DNA of 64,000 nucleotides from Escherichia coli (GCF_044647545.1 NZ_CP172818.1); one strand, 5' to 3'. Counted from the first letter of the stretch, positions 41,644 to 52,354 are shown. The notes: generated from the sequence alone by a model not told the origin. Numbers and translations are program-made.

Positions 41644-42066
41644 ATGAACACACTACGTTATTTTGATTTTGGAGCTGCCCGCCCCGTTTTGTTATTAATT
41701 GCCCGTATCGCCGTGGTCTTAATTTTCATTATTTTTGGTTTTCCCAAAATGATGGGCTTTGACGGTACGGTCCAATATATGGCCTCGCTGGGCGCGCCGA
41801 TGCCGATGCTGGCAGCTATTATTGCGGTAGTTATGGAAGTGCCCGCCGCGATATTAATCGTGCTTGGCTTTTTCACCCGTCCGCTGGCGGTGCTGTTTAT
41901 TTTCTACACGCTGGGTACAGCGGTAATTGGTCACCATTACTGGGATATGACCGGCGATGCGGTTGGGCCAAATATGATTAATTTCTGGAAGAATGTCAGT
42001 ATCGCTGGCGCATTCCTGCTGTTGGCAATTACCGGGCCGGGGGCGATTTCTCTCGATCGCCGTTAG
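41644..42066 (+). CDS. yphA: DoxX-family inner membrane protein
   Basis: Track ORF 41572..42066 contains [35 protein letters not shown]... after a 24-codon extension; 140 aa, multi-TM. Confidence 0.8.
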
Positions 42067-42070
42067 GAAA

Positions 42071-42105
42071 GATGCCGGATGTGGCGTGAACGCCTTATCC
42101 GGCAT
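42071..42105. repeat. REP element
   Basis: GATGCCGGATGTGGCGTGAACGCCTTATCCGGCAT between yphA and yphB. Confidence 0.6.
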
Positions 42106-42113
42106 TTTATAAA

Positions 42114-42986
42114 TTACAGCAACGCAACCCGCAACGACATCTCTGAAGTTGTTGATTCCCCTGGTGCAAGCGCAATGAGGTCACCACCTTCCGGGCGATG
42201 ATGGTCATCCGGCGCATGACTCATCGGTTCCAGACAGAAGAAATCAAACGCATATCCTTTATCAAACGCCGGGTCGGAAACAAAGATGAAATAACACGGT
42301 GCAGGCGGCGTCGTTTCCATGATGATGGCATAACCCTCCTGCGGCTGCTCGATGCGGGCCTGACCATTCCATCCGGCAAAACCATTGTTTACCCACTGGC
42401 GCGGCAACGGCGTGAGCTGGTTAAAATCCAGTTCCTGCGGTAGCTGCTCGCAAAACTCACCCGCCAGCCACTGCTCCCGCTCCAGCCAGTAACCGCTCGC
42501 CTGTGCCTGAATCCGCGTTTGCGGCGACAACGGAAAATAAGGATGCCAGCCGGTACCAAATGGCAGCGTCTCTGCCCCTTGATTGGTAACAGCGAGCGTC
42601 ACCGTCAGCGTATCCGCCGTTAAATGAAACGCCTGACTTACCCGATAGTGATAAACACCGCTGCGATGTTCATACACCAGACACAAGCTATCTTCGCTGC
42701 GCGAGACACATTGCCACTCGCCCAACCAGCCGTCGCCGTGCAGATAGTGCGCATCCCACTCAACATTCGGTTGCAGTTGATACTCACGCCCCTGCCAGAC
42801 AAAACGATTGCCGCTCACCCGGTTTGCAAACGGCACCAGCGGAAAACAAGAGGCATCGGTTGCCACACCGCTTTTTTTACCGGGACGTAAGAGCGGCGTC
42901 GCGTCACGCCAGAAGCCTTCGATGACGCCGCCCCGGTCAGAAACGTCCAGCTTTAGCGGCCCGTGAGATAAGGTATAGATGGTCAT
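42114..42986 (-). CDS. yphB: Aldose 1-epimerase (mutarotase) family protein
   Basis: 290 aa, MTIYTLSHGPLKLDVSDRGGVIEGFWRD... Confidence 0.85.
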   Translation of the reverse strand: MTIYTLSHGPLKLDVSDRGGVIEGFWRDATPLLRPGKKSGVATDASCFPLVPFANRVSGNRFVWQGREYQLQPNVEWDAHYLHGDGWLGEWQCVSRSEDSLCLVYEHRSGVYHYRVSQAFHLTADTLTVTLAVTNQGAETLPFGTGWHPYFPLSPQTRIQAQASGYWLEREQWLAGEFCEQLPQELDFNQLTPLPRQWVNNGFAGWNGQARIEQPQEGYAIIMETTPPAPCYFIFVSDPAFDKGYAFDFFCLEPMSHAPDDHHRPEGGDLIALAPGESTTSEMSLRVALL

Positions 42987-42997
42987 CCGCTGACTCC

Positions 42998-44059
42998 TTA
43001 ATCCGGGAAGTTAATCACAACTTTCCCGCATTTACCGCTCGCCATCAGCGCATAGGCATCTCCTGCCTGTTCCAGTGAGAAGCGATGGGTAATGGCATTA
43101 CGCGGCCACAGTTTCCAGTCCGTTAAATCGTGGGCGCATTTTTCCATATGGAACAGACTGGTCACCCAGGAGCCGATAATCCGCCGTTGATGGTGCATCA
43201 GGTCGGCGCTAACCTCGAACTCGACTTTTCCGGTTTCACCAATGTAAACCACGCGTCCCCAGTCAGCAGTGGATTGCAGTGCCAGCAAGCGACCTGCGGC
43301 ATTACCGGAACAATCGAGCGCAACATCCGCGCCACCGTGGGTGAGTTCGGCGATAATCTGAGGCAGACCTTCGGTGGTTGCTAAATAGCCGTGATCCATC
43401 ACCCCTAACTGTTTAGCCATCGCCAGACGTTCCGGCAGCATATCAACGCCGATGATCCGTTTTGCACCGCGACCTTTCGCCAGCATCATCGCCATCATGC
43501 CGACCGGCCCCAGACCGACCACCAGCACGTTATCACTGCCGGAAACTTCGCCGCGCAAAATCCCTTCATACGCTGTACCAACGCCGCAACTGATAAACGC
43601 ACCATCTTCATAGCTCAGCGCGTCCGGGAGCAGGATCAGATCTTTTTCTTCCGCCAGCAGGTATTCAGCATGGCCGCCGTCACGCTGCCAGCCGTAAGCC
43701 GCTTTTCCTTCGCCAGTACAAGAGATAGGAAAACCACGACGGCAGTTCGGGCAAAAACCACAGCCAGAAATGTGATACACCAGCACACGGTCGCCCTCTT
43801 TAAAATGGTGGCAGCCTAGCCCCATCGCCACAATTTGCCCGCACGGTTCATGACCGTTGATAAATCCCTGGTATAACGGTTTATCGGGTGCCGCCGCCGT
43901 AGCGCGGTGCTGGTGGTAGATATAGTGGACATCGCTTCCGCAAATTCCGGAGGATTTCATTTTGATCAGTACCTGGTTAATACCCGGCGTCGGCACCGCA
44001 ACTTCCCGCAGATCGACGGTCGAATTTCCTGGTAAATAAGCTGCCAGCATCGTTTTCAT
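42998..44059 (-). CDS. yphC: Zinc-dependent alcohol/sugar dehydrogenase (MDR family)
   Basis: Track ORF 42998..44092 contains MKTMLAAYLPGNSTVDLREVAVP... after an 11-codon extension; 353 aa; GHEPCG zinc motif and GLGPVG NAD motif. Confidence 0.85.
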   Translation of the reverse strand: MKTMLAAYLPGNSTVDLREVAVPTPGINQVLIKMKSSGICGSDVHYIYHQHRATAAAPDKPLYQGFINGHEPCGQIVAMGLGCHHFKEGDRVLVYHISGCGFCPNCRRGFPISCTGEGKAAYGWQRDGGHAEYLLAEEKDLILLPDALSYEDGAFISCGVGTAYEGILRGEVSGSDNVLVVGLGPVGMMAMMLAKGRGAKRIIGVDMLPERLAMAKQLGVMDHGYLATTEGLPQIIAELTHGGADVALDCSGNAAGRLLALQSTADWGRVVYIGETGKVEFEVSADLMHHQRRIIGSWVTSLFHMEKCAHDLTDWKLWPRNAITHRFSLEQAGDAYALMASGKCGKVVINFPD

Positions 44060-44124
44060 AAATCCCTCATTAACAATACGATTAATTTTCATCCCTGCCG
44101 CACCCGCGCCAGGGGCGTTTAGGT

Positions 44125-45123
44125 TTAGCGTTTCGCTTTACTGCTTCGCTGAGTCAGCAAGATATTCGCCAGCACCGCCACCACGATGATGACGCCGCGC
44201 ACCACCTGCTGGAAAAAGGAGTTAATCCCTAGCAGCACCAGACCGTTACCGATTAGCGTAATCACCAGTACGCCAAGCAGCGTACCGAACAACGAGCCGC
44301 GACCGCCGGAAAGCGCCGTACCGCCGACCACGACCGCGGCGATGACGTCAAACTCCAGACCGTTTGCGGCACCTGCGTTACCGGAACCGAGGCGCGCCGC
44401 CAACAAAATGCCGGTCACCGCCGCTAATAATCCCGAAAGGGTAAAAATAAGAATGCGTACCCGACGAACGTTAATACCGCACAACTGCGCTGCAGTGGCA
44501 TTACCGCCAACAGCAAAAACCGAGCGCCCGAAAGCGGTTTTGCGGCTAATGAACACAAACAGCGCAAATAACACCATCATGATCAGCGCGGATACCGGCA
44601 CACCGAGAAATTGTCCGCCCAGCCAGTCCAGCACTTCGTTTTCGTTAATTGGCACTGGCAAGGCGTTCGTCATAAACAGCCCCATTCCGCGCAGGGCGCT
44701 CCATAAACCCAGCGTGGCAACAAAACTTGGCACATTAAACACGCCGCGCAGCACCCCGGCGAGCGTTCCCATCAGCGCACCTAACAGCAACACCAGCAGA
44801 CAAGCAATCGCCAGCGGAACGTCAAATTGCAGCAAAAACGCCAGGCACACTGAAACAAAAGCCACCATCGGCCCAACGCTGACATCAATTTCACCGGAGA
44901 TAATAATCAGCGTCATCGCCCAGGCGGCGATCCCGATGGTGGCAGCATCGCGCAGCACGTTCATCTGGTTATTCAATGAGATAAAGCCAGGCGCGTTCAG
45001 GGAGAAGACCAGATAAAGAATGGCAATCACCACCAGCAAACCGATCTCATTAATATGGCGACTGACAAATTGTTTGAGCGAGACGCTCTTGCCCTGCGGC
45101 AATGGTAATGACGAAGCAGACAT
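44125..45123 (-). CDS. yphD: Sugar ABC transporter permease
   Basis: 332 aa, multi-TM; adjacent to yphE/yphF. Confidence 0.88.
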   Translation of the reverse strand: MSASSLPLPQGKSVSLKQFVSRHINEIGLLVVIAILYLVFSLNAPGFISLNNQMNVLRDAATIGIAAWAMTLIIISGEIDVSVGPMVAFVSVCLAFLLQFDVPLAIACLLVLLLGALMGTLAGVLRGVFNVPSFVATLGLWSALRGMGLFMTNALPVPINENEVLDWLGGQFLGVPVSALIMMVLFALFVFISRKTAFGRSVFAVGGNATAAQLCGINVRRVRILIFTLSGLLAAVTGILLAARLGSGNAGAANGLEFDVIAAVVVGGTALSGGRGSLFGTLLGVLVITLIGNGLVLLGINSFFQQVVRGVIIVVAVLANILLTQRSSKAKR

Positions 45124-45147
45124 CTTCAGGTTCCTCGGTAAAATTCA

Positions 45148-46659
45148 TCAGTGCACAGACAGAATGGCGGACATCAGCTCATCCACATTGACCGGCGAGT
45201 GAAACTCCTGCGAGAACGTACCGTGCTGTAATAACAGGATGCGGTCACACACCAGCGGCAACTCCTCCACTTCACTGGAGATAAACACCACGCTTTTTCC
45301 TTCGGCAGCCAGCTCGCGGACAATACGGTAAATCTGCTGTTTGGCTTCGATATCGACGCCACGCGTTGGCTCGTCGAGCAACAAAATCTGGCTGGCGGCA
45401 TAGACCCAACGACCGATCACCACTTTTTGCTGATTGCCGCCAGAAAGCGTGCCGATGGGCGTTTCGCTACTGGCGGCCTTGACCGTCATCCGCTGCATCA
45501 CCTCTTCGGTCAGGCGGCGGATGGTGGACCATTGCAGCACACCGTTGGCGCTGATTTTTTGCCGATTGGTCAGCACTGTATTTTCGTCAACGCCCAGCCA
45601 GGGAATGATCCCCGCTTCTTTGCGGTTTTCTGGCGTATAGCCAATGCCGCGTTTCAGCATGTCGTCGTAATCGGGGCGCGTGATTTTCTCGCCGTTGATA
45701 ACAATTTCGCCCTGTTCATACGTCTCCAGCCCAACTATGGCTTTCAACAATTCACTGCGCCCTGCCCCCAGCAGGCCAGCAATGCCGAGCACTTCGCCGC
45801 GACGTAGCGTAAAGCTGATATCCTCCAGCTTGGGCTTATGGCGTAACGCACGGACTTCCAGCACGGCTTGATCCATAATTTCCTGAGGGGCAACCGGCGC
45901 AATATCAACGTGATCGCGCCCGAGCATTAGCGACACAATATGATGCGTAGAGGTGTTTTCGAGCATCACATCGCCCGCTACCTGACCATCGCGCATAACG
46001 GTGGCACAGGAGGCAATGCGGCGAATTTCTTCCATCCGGTGGCTGACATAAATCACCGCCACGCCCAGTGCCGACATCTTTTTCACCGCGCTGATCACCA
46101 GTTCAACTTCCGCACTGGCAAGCGAGCTGGTGGGTTCATCAAGAATGACCACGCGCGGCTCGCCCTTCATCACCCGCGCAATTTCCACCAGTTGCTTTTG
46201 CGCCGGGCTTAGCGTTGAAACAAGTTGTTCAGGGCTAACGTCAACGCCCAACGCCTGCAAGCAACGTTGGGCGTCCTGCGCCATTTGCAGGTAATCAATC
46301 ATGCCGTTGCGGCGGGGCCACTGACCGAGGCAGAGGTTTTCCGCCACAGTCAGTCCCTCCACCAGACTTAACTCCTGATAAACCGCACGAACCCCCAGTT
46401 CAGCGGCACGGCGAGTCAGCGTAGCTTCGTCACCTTCCAGTCGCGTCTCGCCAATCCAGATATCACCGCTATCCGGACGTTCACTGCCGGTAAGCATTCG
46501 AATGAGGGTCGATTTGCCCGCGCCGTTTTTGCCTAACAGCGCACGAACTTCGCCTTTATTGAGCGTGAAGTTAACGTTATCCAACGCAACGACGCCGGGG
46601 TAACGCTTATTTCCTGCCACCACTTTTGCTACCGGGACTGCCTCTGTTGCCGTGAACAT
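45148..46659 (-). CDS. yphE: Sugar ABC transporter ATP-binding protein (tandem ABC domains)
   Basis: 503 aa; two Walker A motifs (GKNGAGKST and the second half) and LSGGNQQK signature. Confidence 0.9.
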   Translation of the reverse strand: MFTATEAVPVAKVVAGNKRYPGVVALDNVNFTLNKGEVRALLGKNGAGKSTLIRMLTGSERPDSGDIWIGETRLEGDEATLTRRAAELGVRAVYQELSLVEGLTVAENLCLGQWPRRNGMIDYLQMAQDAQRCLQALGVDVSPEQLVSTLSPAQKQLVEIARVMKGEPRVVILDEPTSSLASAEVELVISAVKKMSALGVAVIYVSHRMEEIRRIASCATVMRDGQVAGDVMLENTSTHHIVSLMLGRDHVDIAPVAPQEIMDQAVLEVRALRHKPKLEDISFTLRRGEVLGIAGLLGAGRSELLKAIVGLETYEQGEIVINGEKITRPDYDDMLKRGIGYTPENRKEAGIIPWLGVDENTVLTNRQKISANGVLQWSTIRRLTEEVMQRMTVKAASSETPIGTLSGGNQQKVVIGRWVYAASQILLLDEPTRGVDIEAKQQIYRIVRELAAEGKSVVFISSEVEELPLVCDRILLLQHGTFSQEFHSPVNVDELMSAILSVH

Positions 46660-46681
46660 AGGGACCTCTGCGAATCAGCGA

Positions 46682-47665
46682 TTAGGGCAGACCATCAACG
46701 TGCGTTGCCAGCCACTGTTTACCGTCTTCCGTTTTGGTATAGAGATCGATAGGCACCTGAATCACTTTTTCACCGTCGGCTTGTTTATTGATAACCTTCA
46801 AAGTTTGCGCGAAAACAGCATTGCCCATTTTCTTACCGGAAATATCCACCACCGCTTTCAACACCTGATTGTTTTCCAGCTCCTGAGCAATTTCAGTGGT
46901 CATATCCGAACCGAAAACAGCAATTTTTCCGGCCTGATTTTGATTACGTACCGCTTTTACCGCGCCGAGTGTCGCTCCGCCCGATTCCCCCATAATGGCG
47001 TTGAGATCCGGCGTGGAGATAATCAGTTTTTCACCAACGGAAATCGCTTTATCTAAAACAGTCCCTTCCTGATTAGCGACTATTTGCGCGCCGGGAACGC
47101 GGGATTTTAATACTTCTTCAAATCCTTTACGTCGCTGCACACAAACTTCAAAGGCTTCGCAATTGATGACGGCAATTTTCGGCTGGTCAATTTTGTTGGC
47201 AATAAAATAATCGGCGGCAGCATTACCCAGTTTTTTACCAAATTCCAGCGGATCGCCGACCAGATACGCCGAGACATATTTATCGACGCCTTTTTGATTA
47301 ATACAGGTGTTGTAGCAAATCACCGGAATACCCGCTTCACTGGCGCGACGAACGGTACGGCTACTGCCATTTTCAGACACTGCCGATAAAATAATGGCAT
47401 CGACATTACGCGCCACGAGGGTATCAACAAAGGTACTTTCTTTCGAAATATCACCCTGGGCGTTAGTTTCAATTAACTGTACCTGTACTGAAGAATCTTT
47501 TGCCGCATCCTGAACGCCCTGACGCACGCCAGCGTAATATCCCTGGGTATCAAGGTATATTGCGCCAATGGTCATTTCTTTATCCGCAGCCCTGGCAAAT
47601 AGTGCGCTACCTAATAGCGTAGCTATTAATAATAGATTACGGGTTATTCTCATTTTTTTAGGCAT
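46682..47665 (-). CDS. yphF: Periplasmic sugar-binding protein of ABC transporter
   Basis: 327 aa, MPKKMRITRNLLLIATLLGSALFARA (signal peptide) followed by a periplasmic-binding fold. Confidence 0.88.
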   Translation of the reverse strand: MPKKMRITRNLLLIATLLGSALFARAADKEMTIGAIYLDTQGYYAGVRQGVQDAAKDSSVQVQLIETNAQGDISKESTFVDTLVARNVDAIILSAVSENGSSRTVRRASEAGIPVICYNTCINQKGVDKYVSAYLVGDPLEFGKKLGNAAADYFIANKIDQPKIAVINCEAFEVCVQRRKGFEEVLKSRVPGAQIVANQEGTVLDKAISVGEKLIISTPDLNAIMGESGGATLGAVKAVRNQNQAGKIAVFGSDMTTEIAQELENNQVLKAVVDISGKKMGNAVFAQTLKVINKQADGEKVIQVPIDLYTKTEDGKQWLATHVDGLP

Positions 47666-47761
47666 AGTGCCTCCTGTAGGGTTTTTATTTACAACGGCTC
47701 ATTTTAATTATTTGAGCGTGAGCGGCAGCGCGTGCCGCTCAAATATTACAGTTAATAGGGT

Positions 47762-50700
47762 TTAGTGAACGTAGTTAAAAATAAAAGGCATCACAGTGGT
47801 GAATAATGCCGCTTTCGGCCAGGCCGGATTAATCGCCGTCAATTCAGCGCGAGCAGATTCATAGTGCGCAACCTCCCCGAGTCCCGCGGACGCCAGCATC
47901 GCCACCATCAGGCATTTTTCTTTATGCTGCTGTTGTAAATCGCCATACAGCGACAACAGGTCAGGTTGTGAAACAGCAAAGAAATCCGCCTCAATACTGG
48001 TTTTCGCCATCTCTTGCGCCCACTGTTTCATTTCACTAAACAGTTGCTGTGCGATTTGTTGTTCGCCCAGCAGTCGCAGCGCCATTCCTTGCCAGAAGAG
48101 ATAATCAACCGGCTGATCGTTGTAATAACTGTGAATGTTAATGGTGCGATCGCCAGTCGCCGCCAGACGTAAACAACGCATCGCTTCAGTTTCATCACCC
48201 TGCGCGTTGGCGCATATCGCCTGCCAGAACCAGATGTCGTTATCAGTTTGCCCCGGTAAACGGCCTTCGCTTAAATTCTCCGGATAATGCAGCGCGGCAT
48301 GAAGCAGTTCGCTGGCCTGCTGCGGCTCTCTGGCATCAAGATGCTGCCAGGCGCGTAATAACTGGTTGAGGATAAATTGACTGGTGATCTTCCCTTCCCC
48401 GCCTTCCCACGGGTGGAATTTGCGCGTGGCGAGAATGTCCGCCGCTTTGTCTGCCTGCCCCGTGAGATGCCACAAATTGAGCAGTTCTGCGGTCATGTCG
48501 TCGCGTTTCAGCGCAATTTCCAGATTATTTTCCAGACGCGCCAGTCGTTTCTCCGGTGTGGCTCCGCTTAACTTATCCAGCAAATCCCGTTCGAAAAGCA
48601 GACGTGCATCCTGCGGCGCAAGCTGATAAGCATTATCAAGATAACGCGCGGCCAGCTCATAATCGTGTTGCTTATTCCACGCATGGATCGCTAACCCGCG
48701 CCAGCCGTCGGCAAACTCCGGCGACATCTCTACGCAACGTTGCCATAAAGTAATGGCTTTGTTGTAGCTGCGCTTGTTGTAGTAGAAGCAGGCCAGTAAA
48801 TGACGGGCAAACCAGCACTCTTCAATACTCTCCAGCGCCGCCACTTCTTCCAGCGTATTCGGGAAACGGACAAACTGCGGGAAGACATCAATGGCTTTTG
48901 CGACCAGTTCGCCGCGTTCGGCTTTCGGCAATAAACTCGCCTGCAGATAAAGCGGCAGCGTGCGCTGGCAGTCCAGTGCGTTCAGCATCTCTGCCGCCAG
49001 GGTGGGCATTCCCCAGTTAATCAGTTGCCCGGCGGTCATCAGGGCGTTAACGTCGCGTCCCTGACACAGACCGCGCCACTGCGCGAGGGCTGATTCGCTA
49101 CGACCATCGAACCAGTTCAGCCACCACAGAGTGGCGTTCAGCGGATAATCGCGCAGCAGTTTCTCGCGCTGCAAACGCGCGTTGTCCTGACGACCACTTA
49201 ACACCAGCAGCAGATTATGCAGGCAAAGCACTTCCTGATTGGTTGGGCAGGCGCGAAGACTTTGTTGGCAAAAATCCAGACCAGCATCGAAGTGACCATT
49301 ACGCGCCGCCAGTCGTGCCAGACCATAATAGCCGCCTGCTTTACTATTGCCGCTCCAGACCGCCCGCCAGAAATCCTCTTCGGCTTGTTGATATTGTCCC
49401 TGACGTTCGTAAGCACTGGCGCGAATCAAACTGGCCTGTCCGCACTGCGGATTTTTGTTCAGCGCATGTGCGCGTTTCAGCGCCTGAGTGGCATACGCCA
49501 CCGTTTGCGGGAAGTCGGCGCGGTTATATTCCAGCATCGCCAACGCCAGGTTACAGCGATAATCCAGCAAGTCCAGCGCCACGCCGCGCAGGTAGTAATC
49601 GAAGGGGGAACGGCTGGCATGATGATATTGCTCCAGATGCTGACCGATAAACCAGGCTTCATCTGTACTGGTAATGTCTTGTGCTGACAGTGGCGCTTTG
49701 GCGACGTCCGGCAACGGCAACTCTTGCGGCTGATGTTCCTGATAACTCAGTATGATATTGCCGTCGGCATCGGAGAGCTCAATGGTTAGTCTGTCAGGAT
49801 TGATACCGTGCAACACGCCCTGGATGGCGGTCGCTGGCATCAGTGCCACGGCATCATCAAGTAACGCGTTGCATTTGCCGATTTCGCGGATCGCCAGGCG
49901 GTATCCGTTCAACGGAGAGATGGCATACAGCCCCCACTCAATCCCCCGCTCACTACGCTGGAGTTTTATCACCGCATCGCGGGAGGCATTTTGCACCATG
50001 CCCAGAGAATGGTAAGGCAGGAAATACTGCTCGAAACGCTTCTCTTCGTACGCATCAAGCCAGGTAAAATCAGGCTGGTTATCGGCAAAAATACCGGTCA
50101 TCAGTTCGATATACGGGCCGTTATTGTCGGTCAGACTCTTATCCCACGCCTGGCCAAATTCGCTGTGTCCCCAACTCCACTGTTTTTTACCTGGCGCAAT
50201 ATGGTGGTTGGCAACGTGCAGCAAACCGCCATCTTCATCGTGACACCACGCGCCAACAAAATCGTACTGTGATTTTTCAGCCATATATGAGGTTGGAACA
50301 GGCACATTTTTATAGCGAGAAATGTCCACTCCAGCGGAGTAGTCCACTTTGTAGTAAGTGCCGGTGGCGATGGGGAAAGCAGAGACGGCCCGTTTGCCGT
50401 GATCAAACACCGCCGTTACATCCGGCGGGAAGACGCTCTGATGCCCTTCCCCCCCTTTCACTGCCGGGTTGGCCCACCACAAGAAATGACGCGGCGTGGC
50501 GTTGCCGTTATAGACGCGGCTGGCGATTTCCAGCGCCGCCCGGTCAGGGCGCAGGGTGAAACCTGTCATCACCTGTAAACCATGCATCGGCTCCGTTTCG
50601 CCTACCCACACTGTCTGTGCGCCGTCTTCATGGGCTTCGAGGGTGAAATCAACGGGCATAAAGGTGGTCGGGCGATGGTGTTGCGGCCAGTTAAACTCAA

Positions 50701-51043
50701 TCCCGCCGGAGATCCACGGTCCCAGCAGCCCCACCAGCGCAGGTTTAATGACTTCATTGTGATAGACAAAATCGCGCTGTTTCACTTTATCCCATGCGCG
50801 ATGCACCCGACCGCCCAGTTCCGGCAGGATCATCACTTTGATGTAGTCATTTTCCAGCCACACCGCCTGCCAGGATTTCAGGGTTTTCTGCTCGCTCAGC
50901 GTATCGGTCACGCCGTAGGGATAAACCGCGCCGGACGATCCCTGATAAACGCGATTTTCCAGGAACATGGGATGTATATCCTGCGGCCCGGTTTCATAGG
51001 TCGGGATCTCAACGCGCTCTTGCCACACTTTTACTGGAGTCAT
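47762..51043 (-). CDS. yphG: Large uncharacterised protein with C-terminal TPR-like repeats
   Basis: Track ORF 47762..51136 (1124 aa); probable start at MTPVKVWQERVEIPTYETGP... (1093 aa). Function not assignable from sequence. Confidence 0.8.
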   Translation of the reverse strand: MTPVKVWQERVEIPTYETGPQDIHPMFLENRVYQGSSGAVYPYGVTDTLSEQKTLKSWQAVWLENDYIKVMILPELGGRVHRAWDKVKQRDFVYHNEVIKPALVGLLGPWISGGIEFNWPQHHRPTTFMPVDFTLEAHEDGAQTVWVGETEPMHGLQVMTGFTLRPDRAALEIASRVYNGNATPRHFLWWANPAVKGGEGHQSVFPPDVTAVFDHGKRAVSAFPIATGTYYKVDYSAGVDISRYKNVPVPTSYMAEKSQYDFVGAWCHDEDGGLLHVANHHIAPGKKQWSWGHSEFGQAWDKSLTDNNGPYIELMTGIFADNQPDFTWLDAYEEKRFEQYFLPYHSLGMVQNASRDAVIKLQRSERGIEWGLYAISPLNGYRLAIREIGKCNALLDDAVALMPATAIQGVLHGINPDRLTIELSDADGNIILSYQEHQPQELPLPDVAKAPLSAQDITSTDEAWFIGQHLEQYHHASRSPFDYYLRGVALDLLDYRCNLALAMLEYNRADFPQTVAYATQALKRAHALNKNPQCGQASLIRASAYERQGQYQQAEEDFWRAVWSGNSKAGGYYGLARLAARNGHFDAGLDFCQQSLRACPTNQEVLCLHNLLLVLSGRQDNARLQREKLLRDYPLNATLWWLNWFDGRSESALAQWRGLCQGRDVNALMTAGQLINWGMPTLAAEMLNALDCQRTLPLYLQASLLPKAERGELVAKAIDVFPQFVRFPNTLEEVAALESIEECWFARHLLACFYYNKRSYNKAITLWQRCVEMSPEFADGWRGLAIHAWNKQHDYELAARYLDNAYQLAPQDARLLFERDLLDKLSGATPEKRLARLENNLEIALKRDDMTAELLNLWHLTGQADKAADILATRKFHPWEGGEGKITSQFILNQLLRAWQHLDAREPQQASELLHAALHYPENLSEGRLPGQTDNDIWFWQAICANAQGDETEAMRCLRLAATGDRTINIHSYYNDQPVDYLFWQGMALRLLGEQQIAQQLFSEMKQWAQEMAKTSIEADFFAVSQPDLLSLYGDLQQQHKEKCLMVAMLASAGLGEVAHYESARAELTAINPAWPKAALFTTVMPFIFNYVH

Positions 51044-51154
51044 GGTGCCCTCAATATTAACAAGACATACTGAATTAAAAGATTTGTGGCAGTGTATTGA
51101 ACAATCTGGCAATGTTTTCGCGGAATAATCACGCAATTAACTAAACAAGGTTTA

Positions 51155-52354
51155 GTGAAGATGAGAGCCTGCATTAATAATCAACAGATTCGCCACCATA
51201 ACAAATGCGTGATTCTGGAACTGCTGTACCGGCAAAAGCGCGCCAATAAATCAACGCTGGCCCGGCTGGCGCAAATTTCGATTCCGGCAGTCAGTAATAT
51301 TTTGCAGGAACTGGAAAGCGAAAAACGGGTGGTGAATATCGACGATGAAAGCCAGACGCGCGGGCATAGTAGCGGTACATGGCTGATTGCGCCGGAAGGA
51401 GACTGGACGCTGTGCCTGAACGTGACGCCCACCAGCATTGAGTGTCAGGTCGCTAATGCCTGTTTAAGTCCGAAAGGCGAATTTGAACGCTTTCAGATTG
51501 ACGCTCCAACGCCGCAGGCGCTGCTGTCCGAAATCGAAAAATGCTGGCATCGCCACCGTAAATTGTGGCCGGACCGCACCATCAATCTGGCTCTGGCAAT
51601 CCACGGTCAGGTTGATCCGGTGACTGGCGTGTCGCAAACCATGCCGCAAGCGCCGTGGACAACGCCGGTTGAGGTAAAGTATCTGCTGGAAGAGAAGCTC
51701 GGCATTCGGGTGATGGTCGATAATGACTGCGTGATGCTGGCGCTGGCGGAGAAATGGCAAAATAATTCGCAGGAACGGGATTTCTGCGTGATCAACGTTG
51801 ATTACGGCATTGGCTCGTCGTTCGTGATTAACGAGCAAATTTATCGCGGCAGTTTGTATGGTAGCGGGCAAATTGGTCACACCATCGTTAATCCGGATGG
51901 CGTCGTCTGCGACTGCGGGCGTTACGGCTGCCTGGAAACCGTCGCCTCGTTAAGCGCATTAAAAAAACAGGCCCGGGTATGGCTAAAATCACAACCGGTT
52001 AATACTCAGCTTGATCCTGAAAAACTAACTACCGCGCAGTTAATCGCTGCCTGGCAGAGTGGAGAACCGTGGATCACCAGTTGGGTTGATCGCTCTGCCA
52101 ACGCCATTGGTTTGAGTCTGTATAACTTCCTCAACATCCTCAATATTAATCAGATTTGGTTGTACGGTCGCAGTTGTGCCTTTGGTGAGAACTGGCTTAA
52201 TACCATTATTCGCCAGACGGGATTTAACCCGTTCGACCGCGACGAAGGACCGAGCGTGAAAGCGACGCAAATTGGCTTTGGGCAATTAAGCCGCGCACAG
52301 CAGGTGCTGGGAATTGGCTATTTGTATGTTGAGGCGCAGTTACGGCAGATTTGA
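51155..52354 (+). CDS. yphH: ROK-family (NagC/XylR-like) transcriptional regulator
   Basis: 399 aa in track; N-terminal wHTH (STLARLAQISIPAVSNILQELE) and ROK sugar-kinase-like domain with CDCGRYGCLE zinc motif. Divergent from the yphG-B gene run; exact start uncertain. Confidence 0.85.
   Translation: MKMRACINNQQIRHHNKCVILELLYRQKRANKSTLARLAQISIPAVSNILQELESEKRVVNIDDESQTRGHSSGTWLIAPEGDWTLCLNVTPTSIECQVANACLSPKGEFERFQIDAPTPQALLSEIEKCWHRHRKLWPDRTINLALAIHGQVDPVTGVSQTMPQAPWTTPVEVKYLLEEKLGIRVMVDNDCVMLALAEKWQNNSQERDFCVINVDYGIGSSFVINEQIYRGSLYGSGQIGHTIVNPDGVVCDCGRYGCLETVASLSALKKQARVWLKSQPVNTQLDPEKLTTAQLIAAWQSGEPWITSWVDRSANAIGLSLYNFLNILNINQIWLYGRSCAFGENWLNTIIRQTGFNPFDRDEGPSVKATQIGFGQLSRAQQVLGIGYLYVEAQLRQI

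Follow-up and report, generated by a model that had tools for sequence, protein, structure and literature searches.

Which sugar the yph genes of Escherichia coli serve, and which of their products carries out the characteristic step, is the question raised by positions 41644-52354 of a 64000-nucleotide stretch of one E. coli genome (GCF_044647545.1, NZ_CP172818.1; the whole stretch is called the window below). The first-pass annotation of this DNA had placed eight genes, yphA-yphH, at these positions and had read them as an inducible catabolic locus comprising an ATP-binding cassette (ABC) sugar importer, a divergently transcribed ROK regulator and a 1093-amino-acid (aa) protein, YphG, said to have no assignable catalytic motif. 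The eight open reading frames (ORFs) were recovered at the same positions by ORF calling and in RefSeq, where the coordinates agree and the gene order is hcaD, yphA-yphH, glyA. Each protein family that had been named could be confirmed with Pfam, and the families together with the gene orientation supported the reading as a locus of sugar import and catabolism. The transporter is not the centre of the locus: YphG is the conserved core, and relatives replace or lack the ABC system and YphC. Nor is YphG devoid of a catalytic motif, since its DUF5107 domain has the galactose-mutarotase fold and the mutarotase Glu motif. As an inducible sugar operon the locus is of a known kind, and the family at its centre is enzyme-like, uncharacterised and very widespread. 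The yph genes belong to the E. coli core genome and to its unexplained "y-ome", and the question moves from the cargo of the ABC transporter to the function of the 1093-aa protein, which joins a mutarotase fold to tetratricopeptide repeats (TPRs).

Architecture and fold of YphG

YphG carries no signal peptide and is a cytoplasmic protein in which a mutarotase-fold N-domain is followed by a beta-sandwich and a TPR solenoid, an element conserved across phyla. The DUF5107 family (PF17128) was matched at residues 39-324 with 188.9 bits against a cut-off of 24.4. A first AlphaFold model, built with 24 close homologues, left the N-terminal third at a predicted local distance difference test (pLDDT) score below 50; it was superseded by a model with 68 diverse homologues, which reached a pLDDT of 94.9 and a predicted template modelling (pTM) score of 0.92. 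Structure prediction and fold search had been proposed as a check in the first-pass annotation; carried out here, they revealed the galactose-mutarotase fold in the N-domain, which has the beta-sandwich that defines the mutarotases. A PDB profile search with YphG returned only TPR proteins and 5CD6, a structural-genomics entry for BDI_1685 of Parabacteroides distasonis. This 580-aa protein does not have the C-terminal half of the YphG-type solenoid, and a literature search on 5CD6/BDI_1685 gave no publication or ligand. The solenoid of YphG contains two near-invariant loops of non-structural character, F876-x-PWEGGEG and YPxNLGEG.

Comparison with the mutarotases could be carried to the level of single residues. 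In domain-restricted hhalign comparisons, the N-domain was colinear with mutarotases over about 240 columns (E 0.002-0.02), and the invariant E313 of YphG was aligned with the mutarotase catalytic Glu, which is E253 in YphB. Direct motif comparison, conducted with GalM-type and YphB-type sequences from the fetched loci, gave the same correspondence: the YphG segment GPYIELMTG..DNQPDF.WL.P.E is matched by CLE.Q..PD.PN.P.F..L.PGE in GalM and by FCLEPMSHAPD in YphB. Relative to the aldose 1-epimerase superfamily (GalM/YeaD/YphB), YphG shows only 8-15% identity and leaves the Pfam and NCBIfam models unmatched. It further differs in that the catalytic His cannot be aligned, in being fused to a beta-sandwich and to a solenoid of TPRs some 630 residues long, and in an invariant set of its own. 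The near-invariant residues of this set are H122, H123, R124, H215, D85, K86, K286, K287, D306, D325 and E333, and the N-domain as a whole holds about 40 near-invariant polar residues. YphG matched none of the CAZy-type catalytic domain models or solved catalytic domains of glycoside hydrolases (GH) and polysaccharide lyases. Based on sequence and predicted fold, we infer that YphG may possess a mutarotase-derived active site with altered chemistry.

The ratio of nonsynonymous to synonymous substitution rates (dN/dS) of yphG was 0.06-0.09 overall, 0.013-0.03 in the N-domain and 0.07-0.10 in the solenoid, indicating strong purifying selection on the gene, which extends to all three parts and is most intense in the N-domain. 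Homologue alignments favoured the ATG start that gives 1093 aa over a longer TTG-initiated ORF of 1124 aa (47762-51136). Shortened E. coli YphG products are frequent in sequence collections (P0009, 900 aa, 1109 members; P0033, 692 aa, 1402 members), next to a full-length cluster of 18305 member sequences, and one E. coli genome (L010, 2286-5657) has yphG split into parts of 841 and 244 aa. Many of these truncations may be assembly breaks.

Gene neighbourhoods of the YphG family

An exhaustive HMMER search revealed 5616 clusters (50% identity) of the YphG family at E<1e-3 and 1138 at E<1e-30, and the architecture of about 1090 aa was retained down to about 28% identity. When one genome per species was scanned, at least 599 species genomes were found to carry YphG. 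The carriers include Enterobacterales, Aeromonas, Photobacterium, Lachnospiraceae, Ruminococcaceae, Paenibacillus, Bacillus, Bifidobacterium and many Bacteroidota, as well as marine Flavobacteriia.

For 88 loci from several phyla, ORFs were called and clustered by all-against-all BLAST, and each recurrent cluster was named from a single representative. Regulators of the ROK or AraC type were present in 65 of the 88 loci and were adjacent and divergent in 45; AraC regulators occurred in 50 loci (30 adjacent and divergent) and ROK regulators in 16 (15 adjacent and divergent). Any transporter could be found in 59 loci, with a XylE-like major facilitator superfamily (MFS) sugar porter in 44 (28 adjacent on the same strand) and a CUT2 ABC ATPase in 20. 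Mutarotases were encoded in 25 loci, distributed as 15 YphB-type, 7 GalM-type and 3 DUF4432-like proteins. Among the glycosidases, a GH2 enzyme of about 930 aa recurred in 30 loci (18 adjacent), GH35 in 10, GH36 or GH97 in 9 and GH30 in 5; a GH2_20-like or GH35 enzyme accompanied YphG in 33. SusC proteins (13 loci) and sulfatases (8 loci) were also seen, and a YphC-type dehydrogenase was found in only 10.

Minimal modules consisting of ROK/YphG/MFS/YphB were present in Aeromonas, Serratia, Citrobacter, Hafnia and an Enterobacter, of AraC/MFS/YphG in Sphingobacteriia, and of AraC/YphG, with or without GH2, in Firmicutes. From these modules and the locus counts, the conserved unit is therefore a regulator, YphG and a monosaccharide-type transporter, to which a mutarotase may be added. 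The ABC system and YphC of E. coli are one lineage's version of this unit. In several Firmicutes loci, the genes downstream of YphG looked unrelated, being housekeeping genes or separated by large gaps.

A longer block, ordered sulfatase, MFS, GDSL esterase, GH2_20, YphG, one or more sulfatases and GH2_20, recurs in marine Flavobacteriia (L030, L045-L047, L072, L079, L085), with GH30 and a pair of unannotated lipoproteins, each about 480 aa long, on its flanks. The block has the look of a locus that serves the use of a galactan carrying sulfate and acetyl groups.

Substrate clues from partner enzymes and compartments

The first-pass annotation had held that the substrate could not be deduced from sequence alone, and had named a published assignment as grounds for refuting its reading. 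A full-text literature search gave no substrate for the yph transporter and no function for YphG, YphB, YphC or YphH, and literature on DUF5107 and on combinations of mutarotase, TPR and GH proteins likewise gave no function for YphG. The size and origin of the sugar are less elusive than had been stated, as the context points to a monosaccharide-size product of galactosidase-type enzymes.

The GH2 partner matched PDB 8U01 at 1.5e-112 and the model of the exo-beta-1,4-galactosidase BT4151, and was therefore assigned to CAZy subfamily GH2_20; those members of it that have been characterised are beta-galactosidases (PMC12243196). The GH2_20, GH35 and GH36 partners in Bacteroidota have signal or lipoprotein peptides and the YphG of the same locus has none, with an MFS porter between them; YphG would therefore act on what passes the sugar porter. 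In Firmicutes, the GH2_20 and GH35 partners and YphG are all cytoplasmic. In two gamma-proteobacterial loci, YphG is accompanied by a glycoside transporter of the GPH (MelB) type and by a GH36 or GH2_20 enzyme that is cytoplasmic. The common denominator of these arrangements is that YphG would act downstream of galactosidase-type exo-enzymes, on a molecule of porter size. A free galacto-configured aldose is favoured because both alpha- and beta-galactosidases are partners and a mutarotase is frequent. The sugar may be D-galactose in one particular ring or anomeric form, L-arabinopyranose, D-fucose or a modified galactose. Clear signal peptides occur in about 20 of 115 family members, which argues for a chemistry that requires neither ATP nor NAD(P).

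Regulation by YphH

YphH consists of a winged helix-turn-helix (MarR/HTH_24, residues 16-54) and a ROK domain with the zinc motif CDCGRYGC at 250, of the CxCGxxGC type. It has been described as the third, uncharacterised E. coli ROK repressor, which forms a small branch of its own with an atypical linker motif (PMC4288165). The winged helix-turn-helix, the sugar-sensing ROK domain with its zinc motif and the divergent arrangement are shared with NagC, Mlc and XylR, as is a palindromic operator, which in YphH is a candidate. YphH differs from NagC and Mlc in its separate branch, in scoring 112 against a cut-off of 650 with their NCBIfam models, and in a predicted half-site, ACTAAAC.

The candidate operator O1 is a 19-bp palindrome of the type CACTAAAC-N3-GTTTAGTG, positioned 4 nt upstream of the yphH ATG and 95-113 nt upstream of the yphG ATG. 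Palindromes of this type were found beside the ROK gene, at the matching position, in 12 gamma-proteobacterial loci, against only 5 stray matches in 1.82 Mb of loci. A second candidate copy lies at the yphG/yphF junction; it recurs at the matching position in E. albertii and more weakly in Budvicia. The two sites in the 64-kb window compare with 0.13 expected, a count which is not independent because the search pattern was partly derived from these sites. The real evidence is the positional conservation across species, a phylogenetic footprint, and it makes the two palindromes candidate YphH operators.

The second copy is followed, in the 96-bp spacer between yphG and yphF, by a GC-rich hairpin, and RNA folding of 47690-47775 gave -21.4 kcal/mol (z = -2.66). 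Together, operator copy and hairpin (47719-47767) could serve as an internal regulated promoter, a roadblock or an attenuator. If both palindromes are YphH operators, the transporter genes share their regulator with yphG, with or without a promoter of their own. A lack of co-expression of yphG and the transporter, which the first-pass annotation had named as a refutation, is thereby answered to the extent that sequence allows. No match to a CRP site better than chance was found in either yph intergenic region, and the promoter scan gave no more sites than shuffled sequence.

Proposed role of YphG and alternatives

Based on its protein families, fold, conservation, gene context, compartment logic and operator footprint, the E. 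coli locus may be read as a scavenging operon, repressed by YphH, that serves a free and probably galacto-configured sugar, and in which YphG would perform a committed, cofactor-free step at the anomeric centre. This reading is tentative, and we hold it at rather less than an even chance. The operon would comprise yphG-F-E-D-C-B under the control of YphH and would serve a free sugar of monosaccharide size. That sugar would be the product of a beta- or alpha-galactosidase-type exo-enzyme, either D-galactose-like or another galacto-configured aldose, which other bacteria would produce themselves while E. coli would import it ready-made through YphFED. YphG would apply ring-opening chemistry inherited from the mutarotases to the free reducing sugar, with E313 as the base, and might for example convert ring forms (furanose/pyranose) or aldose isomers rather than simply anomerise. 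YphB would equilibrate the anomers and so provide the one required by YphG or by downstream kinases. YphC, an Enterobacterales add-on, would oxidise or reduce the product or a related polyol. YphH would repress by binding both 19-bp palindromes, the one at the yphH start and the one at the yphG/yphF junction, and would be released by the sugar.

For the family at large, which exceeds 1000 clusters, YphG may represent a new enzyme class with a mutarotase-derived, TPR-capped site. Such a class would catalyse an unrecognised cofactor-free step on galactose-type sugars, either as a ring-form or aldose isomerase or as a glycoside hydrolase family, and would provide the first committed reaction of a widespread route downstream of GH2_20/GH35/GH36 in bacteria of the gut, the soil and the sea, used by E. 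coli to cross-feed. We place this wider proposal just short of an even chance. The steady pairing of YphG with porters and with exo-glycosidases of galactan and arabinogalactan type suggests a missing step in the final metabolism of plant and algal galactans, and a cross-feeding niche for E. coli.

Several points weigh against the scavenging scheme. E. coli has GalM, GalK, GalP and Mgl for D-galactose, and the yph cluster encodes no kinase. The relationship to the mutarotases is faint: YphG did not match Pfam Aldose_epim (PF01263) even at an E of 10, full-length profile comparison of DUF5107 with GalM and YphB profiles was not significant, and across hhalign runs E varied between 0.002 and 0.16 with a full-domain probability of at most 13%. 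The two mutarotase His fall in gaps of this low-confidence alignment, where S112 and W190 stand by eye. The scheme leaves about 630 residues of solenoid with conserved loops unexplained, and the part which it gives to YphC is a guess. The scanned loci were the best-scoring 80 of at least 599 carriers, and ORF calling and clustering were crude. Finally, secreted relatives of YphG occur in SusC/D loci beside GH16 and sulfatases (L090 and L091 among them). Such relatives (P0257 and P0203 among the proteins) include one fused to a domain resembling carbohydrate-binding module family 9 (CBM9), one fused to Exo_endo_phos and one followed by a separate CBM9 protein. They fit an enzyme acting on glycans or oligosaccharides, a hydrolase or lyase, at least as well.

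Alternatively, YphG might found a new family of glycoside hydrolases or lyases. The imported substrate would be a small galactoside or disaccharide that resists ordinary exo-glycosidases; YphG would cleave it in the cytoplasm, and YphB would mutarotate the sugar released. Besides the secreted homologues with their CBM9 fusion and neighbour, this alternative could account for the GPH transporter of the two gamma-proteobacterial loci and for the cytoplasmic GH2_20 and GH35 enzymes of Firmicutes, which imply the entry of oligosaccharides. The invariant acidic and aromatic residues of YphG also exceed a set of monosaccharide size, and the missing mutarotase His fits a changed chemistry. However, the dominant transporters are of monosaccharide types (RbsB-like binding proteins and XylE-like porters), the exo-galactosidases of Bacteroidota are periplasmic and lie upstream of the porter, and no CAZy-type family is matched by YphG. 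That a mutarotase is often encoded nearby, and that the Glu motif has been kept, agrees with a free reducing sugar. Cleavage by YphG is considered unlikely, but it is the main alternative.

A non-enzymatic role, in which YphG would bind sugar and act as a TPR scaffold or sensor on the adjacent ROK or AraC regulator or on the transporter, appears improbable. In its favour, the very long solenoid is a protein-interaction module, a divergent regulator adjoins YphG in 45 of the 88 loci and the mutarotase His residues are not kept. Against this, members bearing signal peptides in polysaccharide-utilisation loci cannot reach cytoplasmic regulators, and the partner regulator switches between ROK and AraC while YphG stays unchanged. 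The near-invariant polar residues of the N-domain and its low dN/dS are typical of an active site, and regulators are ordinarily found next to the gene that opens their target operon.

A polyol or cyclitol route (e.g. of inositol type) centred on YphC, with YphG peripheral, is rated as highly improbable. It draws on the equal scores of YphC with Tdh (L-threonine 3-dehydrogenase) and IolM (scyllo-inosose 3-dehydrogenase), on a weak match of YphF to the rhizopine-binding protein model, and on a yphC knockout that grew less well than the wild type on myo-inositol, in a test so weak that the wild type itself came to an optical density of about 0.017 (PMC3423039). The growth effect, however, was marginal and common to unrelated knockouts (PMC3423039), and the NCBIfam scores are far under their cut-offs (IolM 167 against 450). 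A substrate that has no anomeric carbon would give no reason for two mutarotase-fold proteins, and most YphG clusters have no YphC.

That the cluster is a cryptic, decaying remnant without function in present-day E. coli is barely credible. Although the literature search gave no phenotype or inducer and shortened or split YphG is on record, segment 41000-53000 had a megablast match in 5425 of 5426 complete E. coli genomes at 95-99% identity (at least 80% of it covered in 5368), dN/dS of yphG against E. albertii is 0.06, the diagnostic motifs are all intact, the operator footprint is conserved, and the full-length YphG cluster is large while many truncations may come from assembly.

Transporter and accessory enzymes

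YphF, YphE and YphD form a CUT2-type periplasmic-binding-protein ABC importer, comprising a Peripla_BP_4 protein with a signal peptide (MPKKMRITRNLLLIATLLGSALFARA at the N-terminus of YphF), a single polypeptide with two ABC domains (YphE) and a BPD_transp_2 permease (YphD). The best PDB match of YphF was 5HSG (1e-24), followed by the ribose, YtfQ and Mgl binding proteins. The nearest NCBIfam models were RbsC and AraH for YphD and AraG, XylG and AlsA for YphE. None of the substrate-defined transporter equivalogs (Rbs, Ara, Xyl, Als, Mgl, Ytf, Lsr) reached its curated cut-off; the best scores against cut-offs were 225/398 for YphD, 456/689 for YphE and 64/335 for YphF. The halves of YphE are asymmetric, with the consensus Walker A GKNGAGKS in half 1 only, GLLGAGRS in half 2, and the LSGG signature confined to half 2.

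In a 2023 review, yphFED still appears only as a "putative" sugar transporter. Up-regulation of yphEF has been reported in glucose-transporter (glucose-uptake) mutants, and YphF rose 3-4.6 fold on levoglucosan, a sugar not taken up by the phosphotransferase system, together with many other sugar-binding proteins. Both responses look like catabolite derepression, and levoglucosan was discarded as a clue to the substrate since the increase was judged to be of this general kind.

YphB scored 179 bits with Aldose_epim against a cut-off of 27 and is identical to the protein in PDB 3NRE. Its canonical R56, H83, H148 and E253 are kept across 16 orthologues, which marks it, as judged from these residues, as an intact mutarotase. 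YphC, of the medium-chain dehydrogenase/reductase (MDR) type, retains the catalytic Zn ligands C51 and H81-E82, the structural Zn ligands C111/C114/C117/C125, the Rossmann motif GLGPVG at 193-198 and D217, and by these motifs is an intact NAD/Zn dehydrogenase. Its closest NCBIfam models, Tdh (168 against 380) and IolM, both remained below cut-off. Given its presence in 10 of the 88 loci, YphC is a lineage-specific accessory. The annotated 364-aa protein has an 11-residue N-terminal extension relative to 353-aa orthologues in two other loci (L013, L014), and translation may in fact begin at the internal Met, codon 12. In two Ruminococcaceae loci (L056, L059), the genes after YphG encode a metallophosphoesterase, a pair of MDR-type dehydrogenases, one of them YphC-like, and an enzyme of the mannitol-dehydrogenase family, which independently associates YphG with polyol or ketose redox enzymes for a second time.

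Comparison with known systems

The CUT2 operons of E. coli (rbs, als, ara, mgl, ytfQRT-yjfF) resemble yph in their Peripla_BP_4 protein with signal peptide, double ATPase of about 500 aa and BPD_transp_2 permease, and in the clustering of these genes with catabolic genes and a repressor. The yph locus differs in having a ROK regulator instead of LacI/RpiR, in the lack of a substrate-level equivalog and of a kinase or isomerase of a known pathway, and in its conserved catalytic partner, the 1093-aa DUF5107-TPR protein. Classified by family, the transporter is an ordinary CUT2 importer, YphB an ordinary, structurally solved mutarotase and YphH a divergent ROK regulator.

The galM-transporter-galK genes of Bacteroides form a galactose module of transporter, mutarotase and kinase. 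YphG loci share with gal/mgl-type modules a porter and a mutarotase-fold protein downstream of galactosidases; in contrast to these, the YphG module has neither GalK nor GalT. YphG is not simply a substitute for GalM, since it is often accompanied by GalM or YphB.

Layout of the locus and minor features

The features of the locus are collected in Table 1. The minus-strand genes from yphB through yphF are separated by only 11-32 bp, and the spacer between yphG and yphH is 117 bp.

Table 1. Genes, YphG domains and non-coding features of the yph locus (positions in the window)
Feature	Position	Strand	Description
yphA	41644-42066	+	DoxX-family membrane protein, 140 aa; Pfam DoxX 2.6e-20
REP-type palindrome	42042-42104		Between convergent yphA and yphB; overlaps final 25 nt of yphA
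yphB	42114-42986	-	Aldose 1-epimerase (mutarotase), 290 aa; Pfam Aldose_epim 1.5e-52
yphC	42998-44092	-	Zn/NAD-dependent MDR dehydrogenase, polyol/threonine-dehydrogenase branch; Pfam ADH_N and ADH_zinc_N
yphD	44125-45123	-	CUT2-type ABC permease; Pfam BPD_transp_2 3.4e-36
yphE	45148-46659	-	Fused double-ABC ATPase, 503 aa; two ABC_tran stretches (Pfam)
yphF	46682-47665	-	Periplasmic sugar-binding protein, signal peptide; Pfam Peripla_BP_4 2.3e-33
GC-rich hairpin	47719-47741	-	9-bp stem in yphG-yphF spacer, after second operator copy
Second candidate YphH operator	47749-47767	-	CACTAAACCCTATTAACTG; overlaps yphG stop codon, upstream of yphF
yphG	47762-51043	-	1093 aa; Pfam DUF5107 and TPRs
yphG codons 460-1093	47765-49666	-	TPR solenoid, about 17 helical hairpins (Pfam TPR, model helices)
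yphG codons 346-440	49724-50008	-	Small all-beta sandwich linker (model secondary structure; inside the 544-residue 5CD6 superposition)
yphG codons 1-345	50009-51043	-	DUF5107 domain, large beta-sandwich, mutarotase fold; most conserved part; invariant E313
Candidate YphH operator O1	51139-51157		Palindrome ACTAAAC-CTT-GTTTAGT, perfect core
yphH	51161-52354	+	ROK-family transcription factor, divergent from yphG; Pfam ROK 1.3e-32

The palindrome of repetitive extragenic palindromic (REP) type, GCCGGATG...CATCCGGC, was identified by an inverted-repeat scan and inspection, and the repeat search gave nothing further. In Rfam it gave a sub-threshold match to naRNA4 (38.9 bits against a gathering score of 59.5), besides which the Rfam scan revealed no riboswitch or small RNA. 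It is likely a transcript end or stabiliser. The first-pass annotation had counted yphA as a member of the cluster, which could not be sustained: because yphA is convergent to yphB and the REP element intervenes, it is probably not part of the sugar operon. Homologues of YphA (DoxX) adjoin the ROK gene, on the far side of the cluster, in two other enterobacterial genera (L013, L021), an arrangement which hints at a loose linkage of yphA to the cluster, though outside the operon in E. coli.

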